DNA from: Candidatus Uhrbacteria bacterium
Lineage (GTDB): Bacteria; Patescibacteriota; Patescibacteriia; JACQRZ01
Direction of reading: 5' to 3'
NCBI GenBank assembly: GCA_016206145.1
Contig: JACQSA010000020.1
Coordinates: forward strand, 1 to 40,301
DNA length: 40,301 nt
Shown here: positions 22,486 to 31,267 of the stretch, in pieces
How the letters are laid out: every line of letters starts with the position of its first letter
How positions within the stretch are numbered: the first letter of the stretch is position 1
The notes under the pieces: model-generated
Seen by the model: the letters and a program-made list of their open reading frames with translations, nothing else
The model's database searches: none
What the model was told of the DNA's origin: nothing
Program-made: the position numbers and the translations under genes

Positions 22486-23478
22486 TTATCTGACACAATC
22501 AAAAATCGCTTTTGCGATTTTTTCCGAATCGTGGCGCAAAATGCTTCTTTGAAGACTGTCGCCTTTCACTTTTTTAATTGTCCCGTTCGCAATAAAATCC
22601 GAAGCGATAACTCGCGCTCCTTTCTTTCTACATTCATCAATATCTGGCTGTACAAATTCCGCTTTTCCCAATTTGTATTTTTTCAAAAGAGCAGAGGTGG
22701 GTTTTTTTGTGTTCACAATCACGACATCAATACCGTCTTTGCCATTATGAGCTCCAAGATAGCGATTTAATGTGGTAAAAAAATCTGATGCAGCAAAACC
22801 ATTTGTCTGGCCGAATTTCGTCATAATGTTGGCAACTAAAATCTTCTGAGCTTTTGAGGACCGTATCGCATCTGCCATGCCGCGCACTAAAATATTCGGC
22901 AGCGTGCTCGTATAAAGATCACCGGGGCCAAACACAATTGCATCCGCGTCATGGATCAATCGAATCGCACGATGATTCGCAGGGCCCACAGGTGAAAGTT
23001 TCATTGCAACGATTTTTAAATTGCCATTATACCGTGGTTCGTCAATATGATGCTCACCCATGATGCGTATTCCGTTTTCCAATGTGGCGGAAAGTTTTGT
23101 CGAGGCGAGCATCACCGGTACGACCTGCCCTCGTACATTGAGTAATTTTGCACACAATTTCAACGCCTCTTCGATATTGCCGGTAATTTTTTCCAATGCG
23201 GCAATCAAAATATTCCCAACAGTGTGGCCAAGCAGTGACCCCCGATCAAAACGATAAGAGAACAGTTTCTGTAAAATTGGATCGGTAAACGAGAGCCCAA
23301 GCAGACACTGCCGCAAATCGCCAGGCGGCATGACATTCAATTCTTTGCGAAGTCGCCCCGTTGACCCTCCATCATCTGCAGTAGAAACAATTACGCTATT
23401 ATTCGTCGGAAACGATCGCAACCCTTTCAAAAGAGTAAGAGTCCCTGTTCCGCCTCCGATGATTACGATATTTTTCAT
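22486..23478 (-). CDS. yvcK: YvcK/GlmR (CofD-like) family protein
   Basis: [45 protein letters not shown]. Confidence 0.92.
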
Positions 23479-24653
23479 GAATTTTCTTTTATCTCTTTAA
23501 ATGCGTGCAAGGCCGTATCGAGATGTTCCTTTGTGTGTGCCGCAGAAATCTGCACGCGAATGCGGGCTTTTCCTTTCGGAACCACCGGGTAGGTGAAACC
23601 GCGCACATAAATGCCTTTTTCAAATAAGGCAGATGCCATCTCTGTGGCTAGTTTTTCTTCAAACAGCATAACCGGCGTGATAGGATGCGTGCCATCGCCT
23701 CCTAATGTAAACCCCAATTTTTCCATTCCCGATCTAAAATAATAAGTATTTTCAATCAACTGCCCACGCAGATGAGAAAACGTGCCGTCAAAATTCTGTA
23801 GCACATACAAAGCCGCGGCAGTAATGGCGGGAGATACACTGTTAGAAAATAATGTCGTACGGCTTCTTTGCCGTAAAACATTAATTATTTCTTTACGACC
23901 CGCGGTAAATCCGCCTCCTGCTCCACCCAAAGCCTTACCAAATGTCGAGGTTACAATGTCCACTCTGTCCATAACTCCAGCCTGCTCTATGCTTCCCCTA
24001 CCGGTTTTACCCAGCACTCCGCTGGCATGAGAATCATCTACCATAACCGATGCCCCGTATGTATCAGCTAAATCGCAAATTTCTTTAAGCGTTGCCGTGA
24101 TGCCATCCATACTGAATACGCCATCAGTCGCGATTAATTTTCTCCGTCTGTTTCCGGAAGTTTTCAATTGATTCTCTAAATCGTCCATATCACAGTTTTT
24201 ATAACGAAATCTTTCGGCTTTACACAAGCGAACGCCGTCAATAATAGAAGCATGGTTTAATTCGTCGCTGAATATAGCGTCGCCTTCTTTCAAAATAGTT
24301 TCAAACAATCCAGTATTCGCGTCAAAACAAGAAGTATACAAAATAGCATCTTCCTGACGAAAAAACCTTGCAACCTCTGCCTCCAAATCTTTATGTAACG
24401 TATTGGTGCCACAAATAAAAGGAACGCTCGCCATGCCAAAACCGTACCGTTCCATTCCTTCCTGCGCGGCTTTCACTAACTCCGATGAAGACGCAAGTCC
24501 AAGATAATTATTGCCGCAAAAATTAAGTAATTTTTTCCCGTCAATCATAATCTGAGCGCCTTGCCGGCCTTCGATTACCTTTTCTTCCTTATACATTCCT
24601 GCCGATTTTATTTCCTCGAGTTCTTGTTGTAATTGATCTTGAAAGGAATACAT
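23475..24653 (-). CDS. kbl: Glycine C-acetyltransferase (2-amino-3-ketobutyrate CoA ligase)
   Basis: [66 protein letters not shown]; adjacent to tdh. Confidence 0.93.
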
Positions 24654-24670
24654 ATGATAGGGTGCAGATA

Positions 24671-25825
24671 CTAAAACTGGATTAAAATCTTTGGATGGTG
24701 GAGCATCATCTGCTCAAAGCGCTCTACTGTATAGTCTTTGATGGGCAAGATTGTCCCTTCACCACGCTGCAAAATCACATTAAACATTTTCTCTTGAATT
24801 CCATTGCGTGTATCCTCAAGAAGAGAACGTGTTGTTTCCCACGTTTCAAATACACGACGACCGATGACTGCATGCAGAGTAAGTCCTCGCACAATAAGAC
24901 GATCGTAGTGTTCGATCGTAAAGTTTCCCGATTTGATACCAAACAGAATAACATCGCCGCCTCTTCGTGTCGAGAGGATTGCATTGTTTACGGAAGAATT
25001 AAACCCCGCCATCTCGAATGAAACATCAACACCAATGCCACCTGTTATTTCAAAAATCTCTTTTACGATATTCTGGTCATGCTCAAATGGGTGTGTTTTT
25101 TCTTGCGGCTTCAAAGGAATCACATAATCAACACCGAGCTCGCGCGCCATGGATGCAGCTTTCTCATTCGGTTCGATACCGATAATTGTAGACGCGCCAA
25201 GTCCTTTTGCTACAAGCGCCGCAAAAAGCCCGATAGGGCCCAAGCCGCACAAGGCAACTGTTTTACCTCGAAGATCCACCTTGCGCGCGGCGTGGACAGC
25301 ATTGCCAAACGGCTCCTGCATAGCGGCAACTTCCGGACGAATCTTTGATGTGTTAGTCTTCCACACAATATGGGCAGGCACTTTTACCAATTCCGCAAAT
25401 GCTCCGTCGTGGGAAATACCTAAAATCTTCTCGTTCGTACATACGTGCTTCTCACCCCGCACGCATTGAAAACATTGGTTGCAGATAACATGGGACTCAC
25501 AGGACACAAAATCGCCTTTGCGTATATGGTACTCTGCTTCGACCCGAGATCCGACTTGGACAACTTCACCAAAGAACTCGTGCCCGACAATGCGATGCTC
25601 CTTTTGCTCCATTTCAAGACTCCCGAGAATTTGATCGCGGAATGCGTGACGCAACCATATTCCCCGATCAGAACCACATACGCCTGCATAGTGCACCTTA
25701 ATGATGACGGCGTGCGCGTCAGTTTTGTTTTCTTTTTCATTCAGTGCAGGAGCGGATACTTCTTTCATTTCAAACCCCTTTGAAGTCTCCCATCCATTTT
25801 TTTTGTTGAAAATAAGTGCTATCAT
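24671..25825 (-). CDS. tdh: L-threonine 3-dehydrogenase (Zn-dependent MDR)
   Basis: [24 protein letters not shown]...[16 protein letters not shown]; adjacent to kbl. Confidence 0.85.
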
Positions 25826-26562
25826 ATTTTTTTATTTTTTCCTCCCGTATACTCATACTCATCTTCGCGTAAGCGTCGCAGTCCAGGGCCTTGAGTCATT
25901 TCCTCATGAATGTGCGCAATAAGACCCGGTACTCGTCCGATAAGAAACACCCCTCTTGCCTGAATGGGGTCAAATCCCATATCAAGAAGGACTGCCGCCA
26001 GTGCTCCGTCTATATTCAGTGGCAATTTCTTTGACGAAACTGCATTGAGCGATTTTTCTACCATCAACGCAAATTCGCAATATGTTCCAAAAAAACCCAG
26101 TTCACGCGCCTTGGCACACAAGGCAGTCACGCGAGAATCTTCCAAAAGAACTTTATGGCCGTACCCCGGAACACGAATCTTTTTTTCTTTCAAGGATCCA
26201 ATCAATACATCAATGTCTGCTGTGTCTTTCTGCGACGAAAAAAATTCTGCCGCATCCTGTGCTGCTCCGCCATGGAGTTTCCCAAACGCAAGGATCCCGC
26301 TTGCAAGCGCAGTGTGCAGACTATTGCCTGTCGATGCCGTAAGCCGAGACACAACCGCTGACGCAACTCCAATACCATGATCAATACACGCAACGAGCAA
26401 CGCATCCATCATTCTCGCTTCAGCTGCAGATGGCAATGTGCCGCGCAATACTAAAAATACCACATCGCTAAAACTTTTTTTTGCCATCAATGAGGTCAAC
26501 TCATAGCCACGGATAGATTCTTTGCCGTGTTCCACTTCGCTAATTGCTGTGCGCCATTTCAT
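25822..26562 (-). CDS. Citryl-CoA lyase (citrate-synthase fold)
   Basis: MKWRTAIS, IRGY, IDHG, HGGA, VPGYGHKV, LNIDG, GRVPGLIAH. Confidence 0.88.
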   Translation of the reverse strand: MKWRTAISEVEHGKESIRGYELTSLMAKKSFSDVVFLVLRGTLPSAAEARMMDALLVACIDHGIGVASAVVSRLTASTGNSLHTALASGILAFGKLHGGAAQDAAEFFSSQKDTADIDVLIGSLKEKKIRVPGYGHKVLLEDSRVTALCAKARELGFFGTYCEFALMVEKSLNAVSSKKLPLNIDGALAAVLLDMGFDPIQARGVFLIGRVPGLIAHIHEEMTQGPGLRRLREDEYEYTGGKNKKI

Positions 26563-26687
26563 CCCGTTAGAGGGCTGTCGCCTTATGATTTATGATAATT
26601 GCTATAGTCATAGAGTATTATGTTACAATGTCGTTGTTGCCGTAAGGAAAAATTTAAGATTTTTCCTGTCGAGACCCTCTAACGGGA
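26563..26687. mobile_element. MITE-like element with 12-bp terminal inverted repeats, flanked by TTCAT direct repeats
   Basis: CCCGTTAGAGGG (26563-74) / CCCTCTAACGGG (26675-86); TTCAT at 26558-62 and 26688-92; internal 9-bp hairpin 26645-26667. Confidence 0.65.
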
Positions 26688-26688
26688 T

Positions 26689-27582
26689 TCATACCACATC
26701 CTTAATTACGATGGCCATATCTTCGTAACGATCAACGACTGTTGCCCCACTCGCGCGAAGAGCTGTTTCTTTCTCTTGCACAGAGCCCTTCCCTTTTTCT
26801 ATCAATGCGCCTGCATGGCCGATCGTCATACCCTCAGGAAGTTGTTGCGCGAATTTTCCACCGATAAAAACAACCAAGGGTTTTGTAAACTGTTTCTTTA
26901 AAAGCATTTCGGCGACAACACATTCATATTCTCCGCCTACTTCTCCAAACAATACAACGCCTTTGGTATCCGGATCCGCTTCAAAAAGTTTCAATGCGTC
27001 TGCATAGGGCGTACCGATCAAGAGATCACCGCCAACGTGAATTGCAGTAGAGATGCCAATCCCTTTGCGTCGAAGCTGCCAAGAAACTTCGTTCATCATG
27101 CCGCCGGATCGTGAGATGACTCCGACAGTGCCGAGAGCATAGATCGCATCAGGATCATCTCCTCCCGCGACTCCGATACGCCCCTTTCCAGAACTGATAA
27201 TACCCAAAGATGCCGGCCCCACGATCCTCACTTTATGCCGATGAGCCAATGCAAGGCACTCCGCAGTGTCCCGAATCGGAATGCGCTCAGTCATCACGTT
27301 GATAAGAGGAATCCCGGCTGCGATTGCTTCTCTGATGGCATCTGCGGCAGCAAAAGGAGGTACATAAATCGCTGTGGCATTGATATCGGGATGATATTTG
27401 AACGCGTGTTCAATGCTGTCATATACAGGGATACCGTCAATGTTCTGGCTGCCTTTGCCGGGAGTGACACCTGCAACTACGATCGTATGATACGCGCGTG
27501 CGGCAATGCTTGCTCGCCGCCCCTCCTTGCCCGTAATGCCTTGAATAAGAAGGCGGGTAGATTCATCTATCAAAATGCTCAT
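26689..27582 (-). CDS. SucD-like CoA-ligase alpha subunit (citryl-CoA synthetase / ATP-citrate lyase part)
   Basis: IQGITGKEG, GVTPGKG, IYVPP, SRSGG, GEVGG, phospho-His motif IGHAGA. Confidence 0.85.
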   Translation of the reverse strand: MSILIDESTRLLIQGITGKEGRRASIAARAYHTIVVAGVTPGKGSQNIDGIPVYDSIEHAFKYHPDINATAIYVPPFAAADAIREAIAAGIPLINVMTERIPIRDTAECLALAHRHKVRIVGPASLGIISSGKGRIGVAGGDDPDAIYALGTVGVISRSGGMMNEVSWQLRRKGIGISTAIHVGGDLLIGTPYADALKLFEADPDTKGVVLFGEVGGEYECVVAEMLLKKQFTKPLVVFIGGKFAQQLPEGMTIGHAGALIEKGKGSVQEKETALRASGATVVDRYEDMAIVIKDVV

Positions 27583-28760
27583 ATAGAAATTTTATCCATA
27601 AGTATTTTTGCCGTATCCGTCATGGAAACTTCTCTTCCGTACCACGAAAGGTTCAAATTTTTTTCTCGAGCGGTTTGCTCCATACGCGATCGACCTTCTT
27701 CTTCAAAAGGGCCTGCGCGGCGCACAACGATTGGCACTGAGGGAGCGACATCGCGCAGAGCATCTGCGATTCCTGCCATTGTTTCTCCGATGTGCGTAAA
27801 ATTTGCAACACCCCCGACGATCCATATTCCTTTTACATTGGGTTTTGAAAACACAATCTTTGCAAGCTCATAGACTTTTTCACGTGGAGGATTGCCGGAA
27901 TACTCTGTATAATTTGCGGCCCGACCGCCAACTGCCTCAAGCGCGTCCATCATGCTGATACTTGCTCCTCCTCCGGAAAAAAGGCATGCGATGTTTCCAT
28001 CGAATTCGATATATTTTCCTGCGGTACCGCGATAATAAAATTCACCCGTATCAATAACTCGTACGGCTTGCTCCCGAGGAGTCGGCGCGCGCCCCATGAC
28101 AGTACGCGAAGGGTAGTGCCATGTATGCCGATATTCGCTGTCGTCATCAAGTATTACCTTGGCATCAAGCGCTCGAAACTCTCCTTCACTGAGCCGCACC
28201 AACGGATTTATTTCTGCCAATCGCGCGTCTTCTTCCGAAAAAAGCGTATACAGCGAACGCGAAAGAGAAACAAGCGCAAGAAGATCTTTTCCACGCACTC
28301 CGCACTTAAGAAAAAAATTGCGAATCCGAAATTCTTCAAATCCTCGCACCGGGTGGATCACTGTTTCAAATATGTCTCTTTGCTCCTCAACATGATTTCC
28401 GCCAGAAAAAGAAAAAAGTAACACGGGAGAAAAATATCTTGTCGAATAGGTCATGGAAAGATACCATTCCGCAAGTATGGAAATTTTTTCTTCGACCAAA
28501 ATTGCACACACCTGCTCTCCTTGAAACGGCTGAGCAAAAAGCATTTCACCCTTTTGTGACAAGTCTTCCGTATTCTCAGCAAAAAAAATACCGCTATGCA
28601 ATCCTCGTTTCCCTTTGAGCACCTGAACTTTGAGAACGCACGGAAATATGTCCCACACGATATGTGCAAGCTCTTCTCGCGCAGAAACGAGCACACTCTG
28701 CGGAGTCTTTATGCCATAGGAACGAAACAAATTTTTCCCTTCATGCTCGTAGAGAATCAT
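27579..28760 (-). CDS. ATP-grasp subunit with citrate-binding domain (ATP-citrate lyase / citryl-CoA synthetase large subunit)
   Basis: LYEHEGK, KVQVLKGKRG, EINPL, DAKV; SGGGAS, ANYTEYSGNP and GGVANFT match ACL-type rather than SucC-type motifs. Confidence 0.82.
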   Translation of the reverse strand: MILYEHEGKNLFRSYGIKTPQSVLVSAREELAHIVWDIFPCVLKVQVLKGKRGLHSGIFFAENTEDLSQKGEMLFAQPFQGEQVCAILVEEKISILAEWYLSMTYSTRYFSPVLLFSFSGGNHVEEQRDIFETVIHPVRGFEEFRIRNFFLKCGVRGKDLLALVSLSRSLYTLFSEEDARLAEINPLVRLSEGEFRALDAKVILDDDSEYRHTWHYPSRTVMGRAPTPREQAVRVIDTGEFYYRGTAGKYIEFDGNIACLFSGGGASISMMDALEAVGGRAANYTEYSGNPPREKVYELAKIVFSKPNVKGIWIVGGVANFTHIGETMAGIADALRDVAPSVPIVVRRAGPFEEEGRSRMEQTAREKNLNLSWYGREVSMTDTAKILMDKISI

Positions 28761-28771
28761 TCACGCAAGGG

Positions 28772-29440
28772 TTAAAGGTTAGTGTAGGGTTGGACCAGAT
28801 TCTTAATTTCTTCACGTCCATACACTCCCGATGTTACTCGATATGATGAAAGAAACCATACATCCTTTTCAAAAATAATTCCCGGACCTACTGCAGTATT
28901 CACACCAAGTTGGCACCGATCACCCAGGATCACTCCAAATTTTTTCAGTTCTGTGTCTTTGCCATCAATCACGATCTTAGCCTCGTCGAATCGCAGATTC
29001 GCCACCTTGGCGCCGGCACCAAAATGAACGTTATTGCCAAGCACTGAATCACCCACATAATTAAAGTGATCAAGCCTTACTCCGTCAAATAGGATCGATC
29101 GAATCAACTCTGTGGTATGGCCGATAACACAATTATCTCCTGTAATCACGCTGCCGCGAATATATGCGCCAGAACGGATTTCACAATTCTTTCCAATAAT
29201 AGTCGGCCCTTTGATCACTGCGCCATGTTCAATGGTGGTACCCTCACCGATCTCTACAATGTCTTCGATATGCACATCACCATGAATGACGCCACGATTC
29301 CCGGGCTTGATGATGAAACGAAGGTATTCTTCAATTCGTGGAAAAAGAATCCACATCTGACCTTCTGGCAATCCTTCAAAAAGAGACTGTACTCTCTCTG
29401 GTATGTATGTAAAAAACTGTTTCATGTGTTTCGTTGCCAT
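28772..29440 (-). CDS. Left-handed beta-helix acetyltransferase like the archaeal GlmU C-terminal domain
   Basis: Hexapeptide repeats; IKGPTIIGKNCEIRSGAYIRG; HFNYVGDSVLG; ANLRFD; KFGVILGD; no nucleotidyltransferase domain. Confidence 0.85.
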   Translation of the reverse strand: MATKHMKQFFTYIPERVQSLFEGLPEGQMWILFPRIEEYLRFIIKPGNRGVIHGDVHIEDIVEIGEGTTIEHGAVIKGPTIIGKNCEIRSGAYIRGSVITGDNCVIGHTTELIRSILFDGVRLDHFNYVGDSVLGNNVHFGAGAKVANLRFDEAKIVIDGKDTELKKFGVILGDRCQLGVNTAVGPGIIFEKDVWFLSSYRVTSGVYGREEIKNLVQPYTNL

Positions 29441-29443
29441 GCA

Positions 29444-31267
29444 CTATTCCACTGTTACGCTCTTTGCCAAATTCCGCGGCCGATCGACATCACGCCCAAG
29501 CGCTACTGCCATATGATAGGCAAAAAGTTGCAACGGCAGAGTATTGAGAAGTGGCTCGAGAAGCTCCATGGTGGGGGGGGCAAAAATTATATCCTCGGAA
29601 AAGTCACGCGCATCCTCATCGCCTTCGGTTGCGAGCAGAATAATCTTGCCTCCTCGCGCGCGGACTTCTTCGATATTGCTTCGCATTTTTTCGTACAAAG
29701 AATTCTTAGTCATGATGGCAAAGACCGGAAATGCAGGATCCAAAAGTGCGTTCACGCCATGCTTCATTTCTCCGGCAGGATATCCTTCACTATGGATATA
29801 AGAAATCTCTTTGAGTTTCAGAGAGCCTTCCAATGCGACAGGATAATTTACGCCTCTGCCCAAAAAAAGGAAATCTCGATACTCCTTATGCTTTTCAGCC
29901 AGCGTTTTGATATGCTCGCTTTGTTCTAACATCTTTTTCATTTTTTCTGGAATCTCATAAAGAGCATGGATCATGCGTTGTCCGGCTGCCACATTCATTT
30001 TTTTCATACGAGAAAACTCCAGAGCAGCAAGGAGGAGTACTGCGATCATGTTTGTGTATGCTTTGGTGGAAGCAACTGCAAGCTCCGGGCCTGCATGAAT
30101 GTATGTCCCGCCCTCTGTTTCGCGAGCAATCGTGGATCCCACTACATTTACTATGCCGCGTACAATCGCACCTTTTCGTTTTGCCTCGCGCACCGCAGCG
30201 AGCGTGTCTGCAGTTTCACCGGATTGAGAAATCACAAAAACCAACGTATGCTCATCGAGTACACAATCGCGATAGCGAAATTCAGATGCCACATCAACTT
30301 CGCAGGGTATTTCCATGAGGCGTTCAAATATGTATTTCCCGATCATGCCCGTATGATATGCGGTGCCACAGGCAACGAACACAATGCGATTTACGTTACG
30401 GATCTCTTCAGGAGTGAGATTTAATCCACCAAGATACGCAGTGCCTTCATCTTCGATAATACGACCCCGAAGCGCATCTTTATACACCGTGGGTTGATCA
30501 AAAATTTCTTTGAGCATAAAATGCGGATATCCTTGCTTTTGAGCTTGCTCATCATCCCAATCAATATGTTGGATGTCTTTATGGATGCGAGTTTCACGAA
30601 GCGTATATATGTTGATCCCTTCTCGTGTAAGTTCTGCAATCTCTCCATCATCAAGAAACGTAACATCTTTTGTGTGGGTAAGAAGCGGCGTGGGGTCAGA
30701 TGCGACATAGTATTCTCCATCCGCCATGCCGATTACAAGCGGACTTCCCATACGTGCGCAGATCAGAGTATCGGGATGATCTCTGTGCATAACAACCAGA
30801 CCATAGGTGCCATGTACGTGTTGCAACGCCTGCGCAACACTGTGACGTAGGTTGCCATCGTAATGGGACTCGATGAGATGCGCGAGAATTTCCGAATCAG
30901 TCTGCGAAACAAATGTATGTTTTTCTGAGAATTCTTTGCGAAGCTCACGATAATTTTCAATAATGCCGTTATGGACAAGAATGATATCTTCGCCACAGCC
31001 CCGATGAGGATGAGCATTGAACTCTGTAACTCCCCCATGAGTCGCCCATCGAGTATGCGCAATACCCATGGTGCCTTCGATCGTGTGCCCGCCAATTTTA
31101 TCTATCAAATTATCAATACGCCCCACAGCTCGCTCTATACTAATGCCATGCTGTCCCAAAACAGCAATGCCTGCGCTGTCGTATCCTCGATATTCAAGAC
31201 GGCGCAACCCTTGCAAAAGAAGAGGGGTCGCTTGTTTTATTCCGATATATCCGATAATTCCACACAT
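29444..31267 (-). CDS. glmS: Glutamine--fructose-6-phosphate aminotransferase
   Basis: MCGIIG, LEYRGYDSAG, HTRWATHG, SQSGETADT, VASTKAY, PRNLAKSVTVE. Confidence 0.98.
   Translation of the reverse strand: MCGIIGYIGIKQATPLLLQGLRRLEYRGYDSAGIAVLGQHGISIERAVGRIDNLIDKIGGHTIEGTMGIAHTRWATHGGVTEFNAHPHRGCGEDIILVHNGIIENYRELRKEFSEKHTFVSQTDSEILAHLIESHYDGNLRHSVAQALQHVHGTYGLVVMHRDHPDTLICARMGSPLVIGMADGEYYVASDPTPLLTHTKDVTFLDDGEIAELTREGINIYTLRETRIHKDIQHIDWDDEQAQKQGYPHFMLKEIFDQPTVYKDALRGRIIEDEGTAYLGGLNLTPEEIRNVNRIVFVACGTAYHTGMIGKYIFERLMEIPCEVDVASEFRYRDCVLDEHTLVFVISQSGETADTLAAVREAKRKGAIVRGIVNVVGSTIARETEGGTYIHAGPELAVASTKAYTNMIAVLLLAALEFSRMKKMNVAAGQRMIHALYEIPEKMKKMLEQSEHIKTLAEKHKEYRDFLFLGRGVNYPVALEGSLKLKEISYIHSEGYPAGEMKHGVNALLDPAFPVFAIMTKNSLYEKMRSNIEEVRARGGKIILLATEGDEDARDFSEDIIFAPPTMELLEPLLNTLPLQLFAYHMAVALGRDVDRPRNLAKSVTVE

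Follow-up and report, generated by a model that had tools for sequence, protein, structure and literature searches.

This report concerns a short inverted-repeat element that separates two metabolic genes in a 40,301-nucleotide stretch of DNA, referred to here as the window, from contig JACQSA010000020.1 of a Candidatus Uhrbacteria bacterium. The genome that holds the window (G000; 922 kb, 95% complete) is that of a groundwater bacterium and belongs to a class with genomes of 0.6-1.6 Mb that includes a Candidatus Uhrbacteria metagenome-assembled genome (MAG). G000 encodes bacterial GyrA and GlpX and a TyrRS of bacterial type. The features that comprise the junction are listed below from the upstream gene to the downstream gene; ORF stands for open reading frame.

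26689..27582, minus strand: upstream gene, a CoA-ligase alpha subunit resembling ATP-citrate lyase and succinyl-CoA synthetase; 297 aa, intact, with its TGA stop at 26691-26689
26688..26691, minus strand: upstream copy of the target-site duplication, TGAA, in which the first three bases (26691-26689) form the stop codon TGA of the upstream gene
26562..26687, minus strand: inserted element, 126 bp, non-coding, 39% G+C; ends set by a rule derived from 56 copies elsewhere
26675..26687, minus strand: terminal inverted repeat adjoining the upstream gene, T-CCCGTTAGAGGG
26654..26692, minus strand: 12-codon mini-ORF, MNPVRGSRQEKS*, whose first codon is the former start codon of the downstream gene and which continues into the element
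26645..26667, no strand assigned: subterminal perfect 9-bp A/T-rich hairpin, AGGAAAAAT / ATTTTTCCT, with a loop of 5
26562..26574, minus strand: terminal inverted repeat adjoining the downstream gene, CCCTCTAACGGG-A, the last base of which (26562) supplies the A of the rebuilt start codon
26558..26561, minus strand: target-site duplication, downstream copy, TGAA; its TG and the terminal A of the element form the ATG (26562-26560) of the downstream gene
25822..26562, minus strand: downstream gene, a protein with a citrate-synthase C-terminal domain resembling citryl-CoA lyase; 246 aa, intact, with its ATG at 26562-26560

Read on the coding (minus) strand, the junction runs ...AAGGATGTGGTA-TGAA-T-CCCGTTAGAGGG...(100 nt)...CCCTCTAACGGG-A-TGAA-ATGGCGC. 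A repeat finder places the arms of the inverted repeat at 26561-26574 and 26675-26688, each 14 nt long, 100% complementary and 100 nt apart, and the perfect 9-bp hairpin at 26645-26653 / 26659-26667. Removal of 130 bp, counted either as 125 + 5 or as 126 + 4, returns the upstream stop and the downstream start to an ATGA overlap, which is also the arrangement of the neighbouring junctions at 27579, 25822 and 23475. An earlier note, made from the letters of the window, had described an inverted-repeat insert in such an overlap, with an AT-rich interior holding a perfect hairpin, and that description is borne out; the G+C content of the interior (26575-26674) is 33%, compared with 38-50% for the window. 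The same note had divided the gain into 125 bp and a duplicated ATGAA. The gain of 130 bp stands, while the division is re-set to 126 bp and a duplicated TGAA by a rule taken from 56 copies elsewhere, in which one variable, complementary terminal base lies outside CCCG...CGGG and is followed by a 4-bp duplication. Since the TGA is kept upstream and the terminal A with the duplicated TG restores an ATG downstream, both host genes remain whole, in line with what the note had said of the duplication. Residues 1-246 of the lyase-like protein align with the orthologue of a sister species.

With stops in the frames read through it, the element codes for nothing beyond the 12-codon remnant ORF, which begins with MNPVR, as do nuclease-bearing relatives described below. 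Its predicted RNA fold is strong (-46.5 kcal/mol against -26.5 +/- 3.4 kcal/mol in shuffles, z = -5.9), and none of 200 shuffles folded as well. When one mismatch at most is allowed, the terminal 12-mer is present twice in the window against a shuffle mean of 0.10, a count reached by 1 of 100 shuffles. Searches of Rfam gave no match at E values up to 10 within 26300-26950, and a scan of the whole window returned only tRNAs. Likewise, a promoter and terminator scan of the element found two promoter-like sites where 1.1 +/- 1.1 were expected, which is not above chance.

The termini of the element are not confined to the window. Throughout the class, family members can be recognized as N-CCCGTTAGA.../...TCTAACGGG-N', and the pattern CCCGTTAGA-N65-130-TCTAACGGG, bounding elements of 65-170 bp, is present in 64 of 401 genomes, with no hit for a reversed-pattern control in any of them; the further end pairs that the earlier note proposed to look for do therefore exist. 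Their distribution is patchy, with none in 337 genomes and 72, 52, 43, 41, 28, 28 and 20 copies in the richest. In 618 kb of G066, the genome with the most copies (taken to be the same as G041 from identical coordinates), the terminal 9-mer occurs 71 + 76 times against 2.4 expected per strand, with control counts of 1 and 7, and 56 elements of 27-155 bp amount to about one per 11 kb. For the exact 12 + 12-nt ends of the window copy, a scan of 185,579 species genomes gave three other sites. One lies between mreB and mreC in a Uhrbacteria MAG and a second, in the same MAG, at the junction of a 470-aa ORF with a beta-CASP RNase gene (TAG-C-(element)-G-T-ATG); the third is a GC-rich palindrome between convergent genes of an Armatimonadota MAG. 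A metagenome scan with the same ends returned five loci, all of them the three sites already known from genomes, and a scan of viral contigs gave none. The Uhrbacteria copies share the layout of the window copy, namely an arm, an AT-rich stretch, an A/T hairpin of the same position and type, and the other arm. In a third Uhrbacteria copy a compensatory change in both arms (GGGT/ACCC to GGAT/ATCC) keeps the pairing.

Within G000, the window copy is the sole member of its subtype. A second pair of ends is found at C60:9913-10027 and single exact ends occur at C19 and C9, all of other subtypes; the C19 end is part of a further element, which occupies an ATGAAC start codon and has ATGAAT|CCCG as its left flank. 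The near-perfect Armatimonadota palindrome of 140 nt (L043:1494-1633 and L047) has an unrelated interior, and chance, convergence or transfer could each account for it.

The duplication and the choice of target are best seen where copies are numerous. Of the 56 elements of G066, 54 have a complementary base immediately outside CCCG/CGGG, and in 37 the 4-mers that follow are identical, as against 0-4 at other offsets. Most frequent are the duplications TAAA/TTTA (18) and TATG/CATA (13), joined by TCAA, TGAA, TCTA, TAGA and CGAG. The 4-bp rule also holds for 11 of 13 elements in G075, a genome from another family of the class. Counted on simple longest-ORF gene calls, copies flanked by a TATG duplication occupy the start codon of an ORF of 80 aa or more in 13/13 cases in G066 and 7/8 in G075 (20/21). 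By comparison, unoccupied non-coding TATG sites are called starts in 26% and 29% of cases, respectively, which gives binomial p values of 2e-8 and 1e-3. A same-strand upstream gene ends within 20 nt in 8 of the 13 G066 copies, two others have a divergent gene and three have the gene end 100-306 nt upstream; in G075 the upstream end is within 20 nt in 2 of 8. As the upstream gene is that close in only these cases, stop/start junctions are frequent sites and not the common denominator, and the earlier suggestion that stop/start overlaps are themselves the target gives way to start codons. Judged from the sites occupied, the family targets start codons, in TATG or ATGAA contexts, and the start codon in the window happened to overlap a stop.

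Two further observations relate to these insertions. Tandem elements that share one TATG occur in G066 (C2:31745/31760 and C15:20533/20673); because each insertion regenerates its own target, arrays can build up. The hairpin end is proximal to the host gene in 11 of 13 G066 copies, with two ties, and in G075 it is proximal in three and distal in five; an orientation rule drawn from the former was rejected in view of the mixed picture in the latter.

Longer copies were sought as end pairs spaced 240-340 bp apart, and such pairs were found in 22 of the 401 class genomes. By cross-tabulation, 17 of the 64 genomes that hold short copies have long pairs too, against 5 of the 337 that hold none. Some of the long pairs are merely two adjacent short copies. 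A GIY-YIG ORF or its remnant was present in all 16 loci that were read, intact at 83-94 aa in 11 and truncated in 5. The termini of these coding copies are 273-319 bp apart, with full-length copies at about 273-291 bp. Each of three proteins tested matches the Pfam GIY-YIG family (PF01541; E 4e-14 to 2e-16), and the best solved relative is the UPF0213 protein 1ZG2 (E 2e-8). NCBIfam gave nothing above its cutoff, with one weak sub-threshold match to TIGR01453 for one of the three.

The flanks of several coding copies match those of the window copy. Five of them (L126, L132, L134, L139 and L141) have its left flank ATGAAT|CCCG, and L126, L134 and L139 have the right flank CGGG|ATGAA as well. In L126, L132, L139 and L142 (the last with the flank ATGAGT), the ORF runs from the host-side ATG through the repeat and begins with MNPVR; in L126, L132 and L139 it ends in ..LTG-TGA, the TGA of which overlaps the rebuilt host ATG. 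The same kind of start is seen in L136 (flank ATGAT), where the ORF begins with MIPLE. Ten of the 16 coding copies adjoin an ORF of at least 137 aa whose start is 0-4 nt from the element end. Compared by eye, the hairpin of the window copy may correspond to the 3' coding end (..NRLKFFF..) of these relatives.

Turning to the orthologous junction, the lyase-like gene is present in 4 of 40 relatives, and in all four the alpha subunit adjoins it. None of the four (G001, G007, G011 and G032) carries an element of the window type between the two genes. The two genes are separated by 21 nt in G007, by 4 nt in G011 and by about 29 nt in G032. The corresponding spacer of the sister species G001, about 230 nt long and with a 55-nt overlap of two contigs inside it, is an unrelated inverted-repeat unit termed family B. 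The start of the lyase-like gene, ATGAAATGG, is common to G001, G007, G011 and the window, and G032 starts differently. Since G001, G007 and G011 have this start without the element, relatives show the downstream half of the target in unoccupied form. The ATGA overlap itself is shown by no relative. An ancestral overlap in this species would follow from taking out the element and one duplication. A contig assembled from a second sample among public runs spans the boundary between gene and element (26450-26626); among the runs listed as holding the locus, none is of RNA.

Family B is a unit of about 180 bp with the ends TTGACCTT...AAGGTCAA. It is multi-copy at contig ends in G001, where it breaks the assembly (L013:1-115 and L009:1-176, on contigs C106 and C3), and has two copies in G000 (C50:3573-3753 and C46:4345-4437).

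Several known systems share individual traits with this family. The Correia/NEMIS elements of Neisseria and the ERIC/IRU elements of enterobacteria are likewise non-coding units of 100-150 bp that form an RNA hairpin from terminal inverted repeats, duplicate their target, reside in operons or beside genes and reach many copies in some genomes. Correia/NEMIS elements have 26-bp inverted repeats and a TA duplication. In contrast to both, the termini here are of the CCCGTTAGA type, the duplication is 4 bp and comes from a variable, T-rich target instead of TA, the tie to start codons is strict (20/21), and the only coding relative encodes a GIY-YIG protein, not a DDE enzyme. GIY-YIG homing endonucleases, whether in group I introns or free-standing and of the I-TevI type, offer a precedent for selfish elements that are mobilised by a GIY-YIG nuclease and have sequence-specific targets. 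Unlike the present family, they have added DNA-binding domains, are copied by double-strand-break repair into one cognate site, and lack inverted repeats, duplications and MITE derivatives, where MITE stands for miniature inverted-repeat transposable element.

The closest published system is Ssn/SRM. Ssn proteins are single-domain GIY-YIG nucleases of single-stranded DNA (ssDNA), and amplified hairpin repeats, NTS/SRM, lie on either side of their genes (Chenal et al., Nat Commun 2025, PMC11893778); the authors noted an insertion-sequence-like NTS-ssnA-NTS architecture and suggested domestication (PMC11893778). As in the nuclease-bearing relatives, a single-domain GIY-YIG protein of about 90-100 residues is encoded by a gene bracketed by its own repeat; as in the family at large, the repeats have multiplied, to tens or hundreds of copies, and the base of the stem here, AATCCCG...CGGGATT, recalls the dRS3/NTS core ATTCCC..GGGAAT (PMC11893778). 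The differences lie in the repeats and the site. Two separate local hairpins of 20-50 nt flank the Ssn gene (PMC11893778), whereas here one long-range inverted repeat encloses the nuclease gene. Here, too, there are 4-bp duplications and an ORF that borrows the host ATG, while target duplication, terminal inverted repeats and start-codon insertion are not described in the consulted passages of the Ssn paper. The terms "start codon", "Patescibacteria" and "candidate phyla" have no occurrence in PMC11893778.

An arrangement resembling NTS-ssnA-NTS is also found in G000, where a 93-aa GIY-YIG gene (C12:12827-13024) has local GTCATCCCGA..N..GGGATC hairpins on both sides. The motif GTCATCCCGA..N..GGGATC occurs 29 times in G000 against 1.8 expected.

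Taken together, the stretch 26562-26687 is very probably a MITE, that is, a gene-less derivative of a family of very small transposons of ultra-small bacteria of the candidate phyla radiation (CPR) or Patescibacteria type, with mobilisation in trans by a GIY-YIG nuclease as the proposed mechanism. It is short and non-coding, has inverted ends and a duplication, belongs to a group found at many sites, and has a coding relative with the same ends, for which the role of transposase is a proposed one. The earlier note had already called it a non-autonomous mobile element, and the recurrence of the same termini at unrelated loci in many genomes, with target-site duplications, supports that view. 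Here the insertion struck the start codon of the citryl-CoA-lyase-like gene (context A|TGAA), at a place where this start would have overlapped the preceding stop (ATGA). A staggered 4-bp duplication kept the upstream TGA, and the terminal A of the element with the duplicated TG supplied the ATG downstream. Mobilisation in trans would be the work of the only known gene of the family, the single-domain GIY-YIG nuclease of 83-94 residues. In full-length copies this gene would be read from the start codon of the host itself through the inverted repeat and end in a TGA placed over the rebuilt host ATG.

How the downstream gene continues to be expressed is a matter for speculation. Its message could come from read-through transcription. 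The insertion has put 130 nt more between the old Shine-Dalgarno-like AAGGA and the ATG, and in a modelled fold the 14-bp terminal stem might bring AAGGA close to the rebuilt ATG and thereby aid initiation. The idea of the earlier note that the element hides by folding out, so that stop and start meet again in the mRNA, would likewise draw on this predicted fold. Hairpins that shorten the distance between the Shine-Dalgarno sequence and the AUG are known from phage T4 genes. Alternatively, translation of the 12-codon mini-ORF might melt the terminal stem.

The same facts can be read in other ways. A MITE of this kind could be moved by a conventional DDE-type transposase that makes 4-bp duplications, with the GIY-YIG gene as a passenger or an independent selfish gene. 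The combination of a 4-bp duplication and terminal inverted repeats is indeed the classic DDE signature among families of insertion sequences, the literature searched holds no biochemical link between GIY-YIG proteins and such duplications, and G000 has copies of the element and no nuclease copy with these ends. However, with termini up to 340 bp apart, the GIY-YIG ORF or its remnant is the only coding sequence found between them at all 16 loci, although no direct search for a DDE gene was made. A self-BLAST of 618 kb of G066, the highest-copy genome, gave no repeat longer than 311 bp besides internal gene repeats and no multi-copy repeat of transposase size. Moreover, the nuclease ORF is built into the ends, starting in the duplication and reading through the repeat, and movement by a DDE enzyme is accordingly considered unlikely.

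Far less probable is a structured RNA or DNA element that the host itself encodes in the operon, such as a processing stem, an intercistronic regulator or a terminator-like hairpin. Such a role would suit the strong fold (z = -5.9), the compensatory change that keeps the arms paired in one Uhrbacteria copy, the pairs elsewhere that bracket tRNA genes in the manner of a processing stem, and a modelled stem that would juxtapose stop and start. It sits poorly with the absence of the element at the orthologous junction in 4/4 relatives that have the operon, the same ends at unrelated loci with variable 4-bp duplications, a patchy distribution (64/401 genomes, with 0 to 72 copies), the lack of an Rfam match and the existence of coding relatives. 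REP and REPIN elements, whose RAYT is a cognate Y1 transposase with a gene flanked by repeats, insert without target duplication, whereas a duplication is present here in 37/56 copies. Their characteristic of a hairpin-forming intergenic repeat in many copies does recur here, and the Ssn paper draws a parallel to REP/RAYT (PMC11893778). Nevertheless, the ends in the present family are long-range inverted repeats rather than paired local palindromes, and a palindromic element of REP/REPIN type or derived from IS200/IS605, moved by a Y1 (HUH) transposase, ranks as the least probable of the three, although no search was aimed at Y1 or RAYT genes.

Two other candidates were tried and rejected. An integron attC site was rejected since the GTTAGAG/CTCTAAC cores fit only 6/7 positions of the attC consensus and the element lacks bulged bases and lies in a conserved metabolic operon. 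A DNA-uptake sequence was set aside since most genomes lack the motif and nearly all its occurrences are in inverted pairs.

Several points weigh against a MITE mobilised by the GIY-YIG nuclease. As the earlier note had observed, the window holds no mobilising enzyme, and neither it nor the 95%-complete G000 yielded a nuclease copy with these termini. The part of the GIY-YIG protein as mobility enzyme is suggested by its association with the termini, and no search was aimed at a DDE transposase acting in trans. By BLAST, neither G000 nor the 16 genomes of its family hold a close copy; recent transposition in the lineage is therefore not shown. No empty allele was seen in four public DNA runs, all from one study and with contigs that lack a joint across the element. 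In G258, the 4-bp rule is followed in only 1 of 10 cases; the elements there are 75-100 bp long, and their inverted repeat extends six bases further out (GTCAAC...GTTGAC). The longest-ORF gene calls behind the start-codon counts favour the first ATG after an element, and the chance in-frame rate is about one third. Finally, the hairpin end of the window copy is distal from the downstream gene, opposite to 11/13 G066 copies.

A broader proposal can be put forward more tentatively, at somewhat less than even chances. The full-length copies of about 275 bp could represent a new kind of insertion sequence and perhaps the smallest autonomous transposon, one with a 90-residue GIY-YIG transposase that homes to start codons, borrows the ribosome-binding site and ATG of the host and hands translation back through a rebuilt ATGA; gene-less copies would be tolerated through rebuilt codons and coupling by the stem. 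The literature searched holds no description of the family, of MITEs in CPR bacteria, of the motif, or of bacterial GIY-YIG elements with inverted repeats and duplications, and the family is apparently both widespread in the class and undescribed.

The window copy itself is ordinary, and its value is as a clean example of an insertion that splits an overlapping stop and start with neither gene harmed. The family is of wider interest because it reaches high numbers in some genome-reduced CPR bacteria (in one 1.2-Mb genome, roughly one copy every 11 kb), a group commonly regarded as having little mobile DNA, and because it lands almost only on start codons. The nuclease fold of its coding form is not described as a transposase in the literature searched. 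Were the nuclease the mobility enzyme, bacterial insertion sequences would gain a new catalytic class, and the ssDNA nucleases of the Ssn group would be linked to true transposition. For annotation, such elements can appear as long operon "spacers", as false small ORFs and as contig breaks in metagenome assemblies.

The operon that received the element is a ten-gene cluster on the minus strand of the window (22486-31267) and represents an unusual ATP-citrate-lyase-like setting for a reduced genome. It holds a GlmS-like amidotransferase, a hexapeptide transferase, an ATP-grasp citrate-binding subunit, the CoA-ligase alpha subunit, the citryl-CoA-lyase-like gene, a Zn-dependent dehydrogenase, a class I/II aminotransferase and a CofD-like transferase. 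Elsewhere in the window, a tRNA-Ile gene with the anticodon TAT is located at 902-976 on the plus strand.

Some minor observations pertain to copies in other genomes. Pairs of CCCGTTAGA ends bracket a whole tRNA gene at G006:C5:111636-111752, G010:C24:3541-3652 and G144:C59:22-133 (the tRNA judged by eye from 80 nt of sequence), and these may be two neighbouring ends, a case of cargo capture or a processing stem. Long called ORFs in G066 contain copies of the AGAGAA subtype (C4:70811-70912, C20:20306-20407, C21:21133-21228 and C3:7769-7859) and also 27-nt hairpins with the same ends (C1:45085 and C11:13795). These copies may be in-frame insertions of the kind known as Rickettsia palindromic elements, or the ORF calls may be wrong. 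In many G066 copies of 120-135 bp, a TATAAT-like box can be seen by eye 7-9 nt before the subterminal hairpin and may be an outward promoter; a box so placed in the window copy would be directed antisense to the upstream gene.

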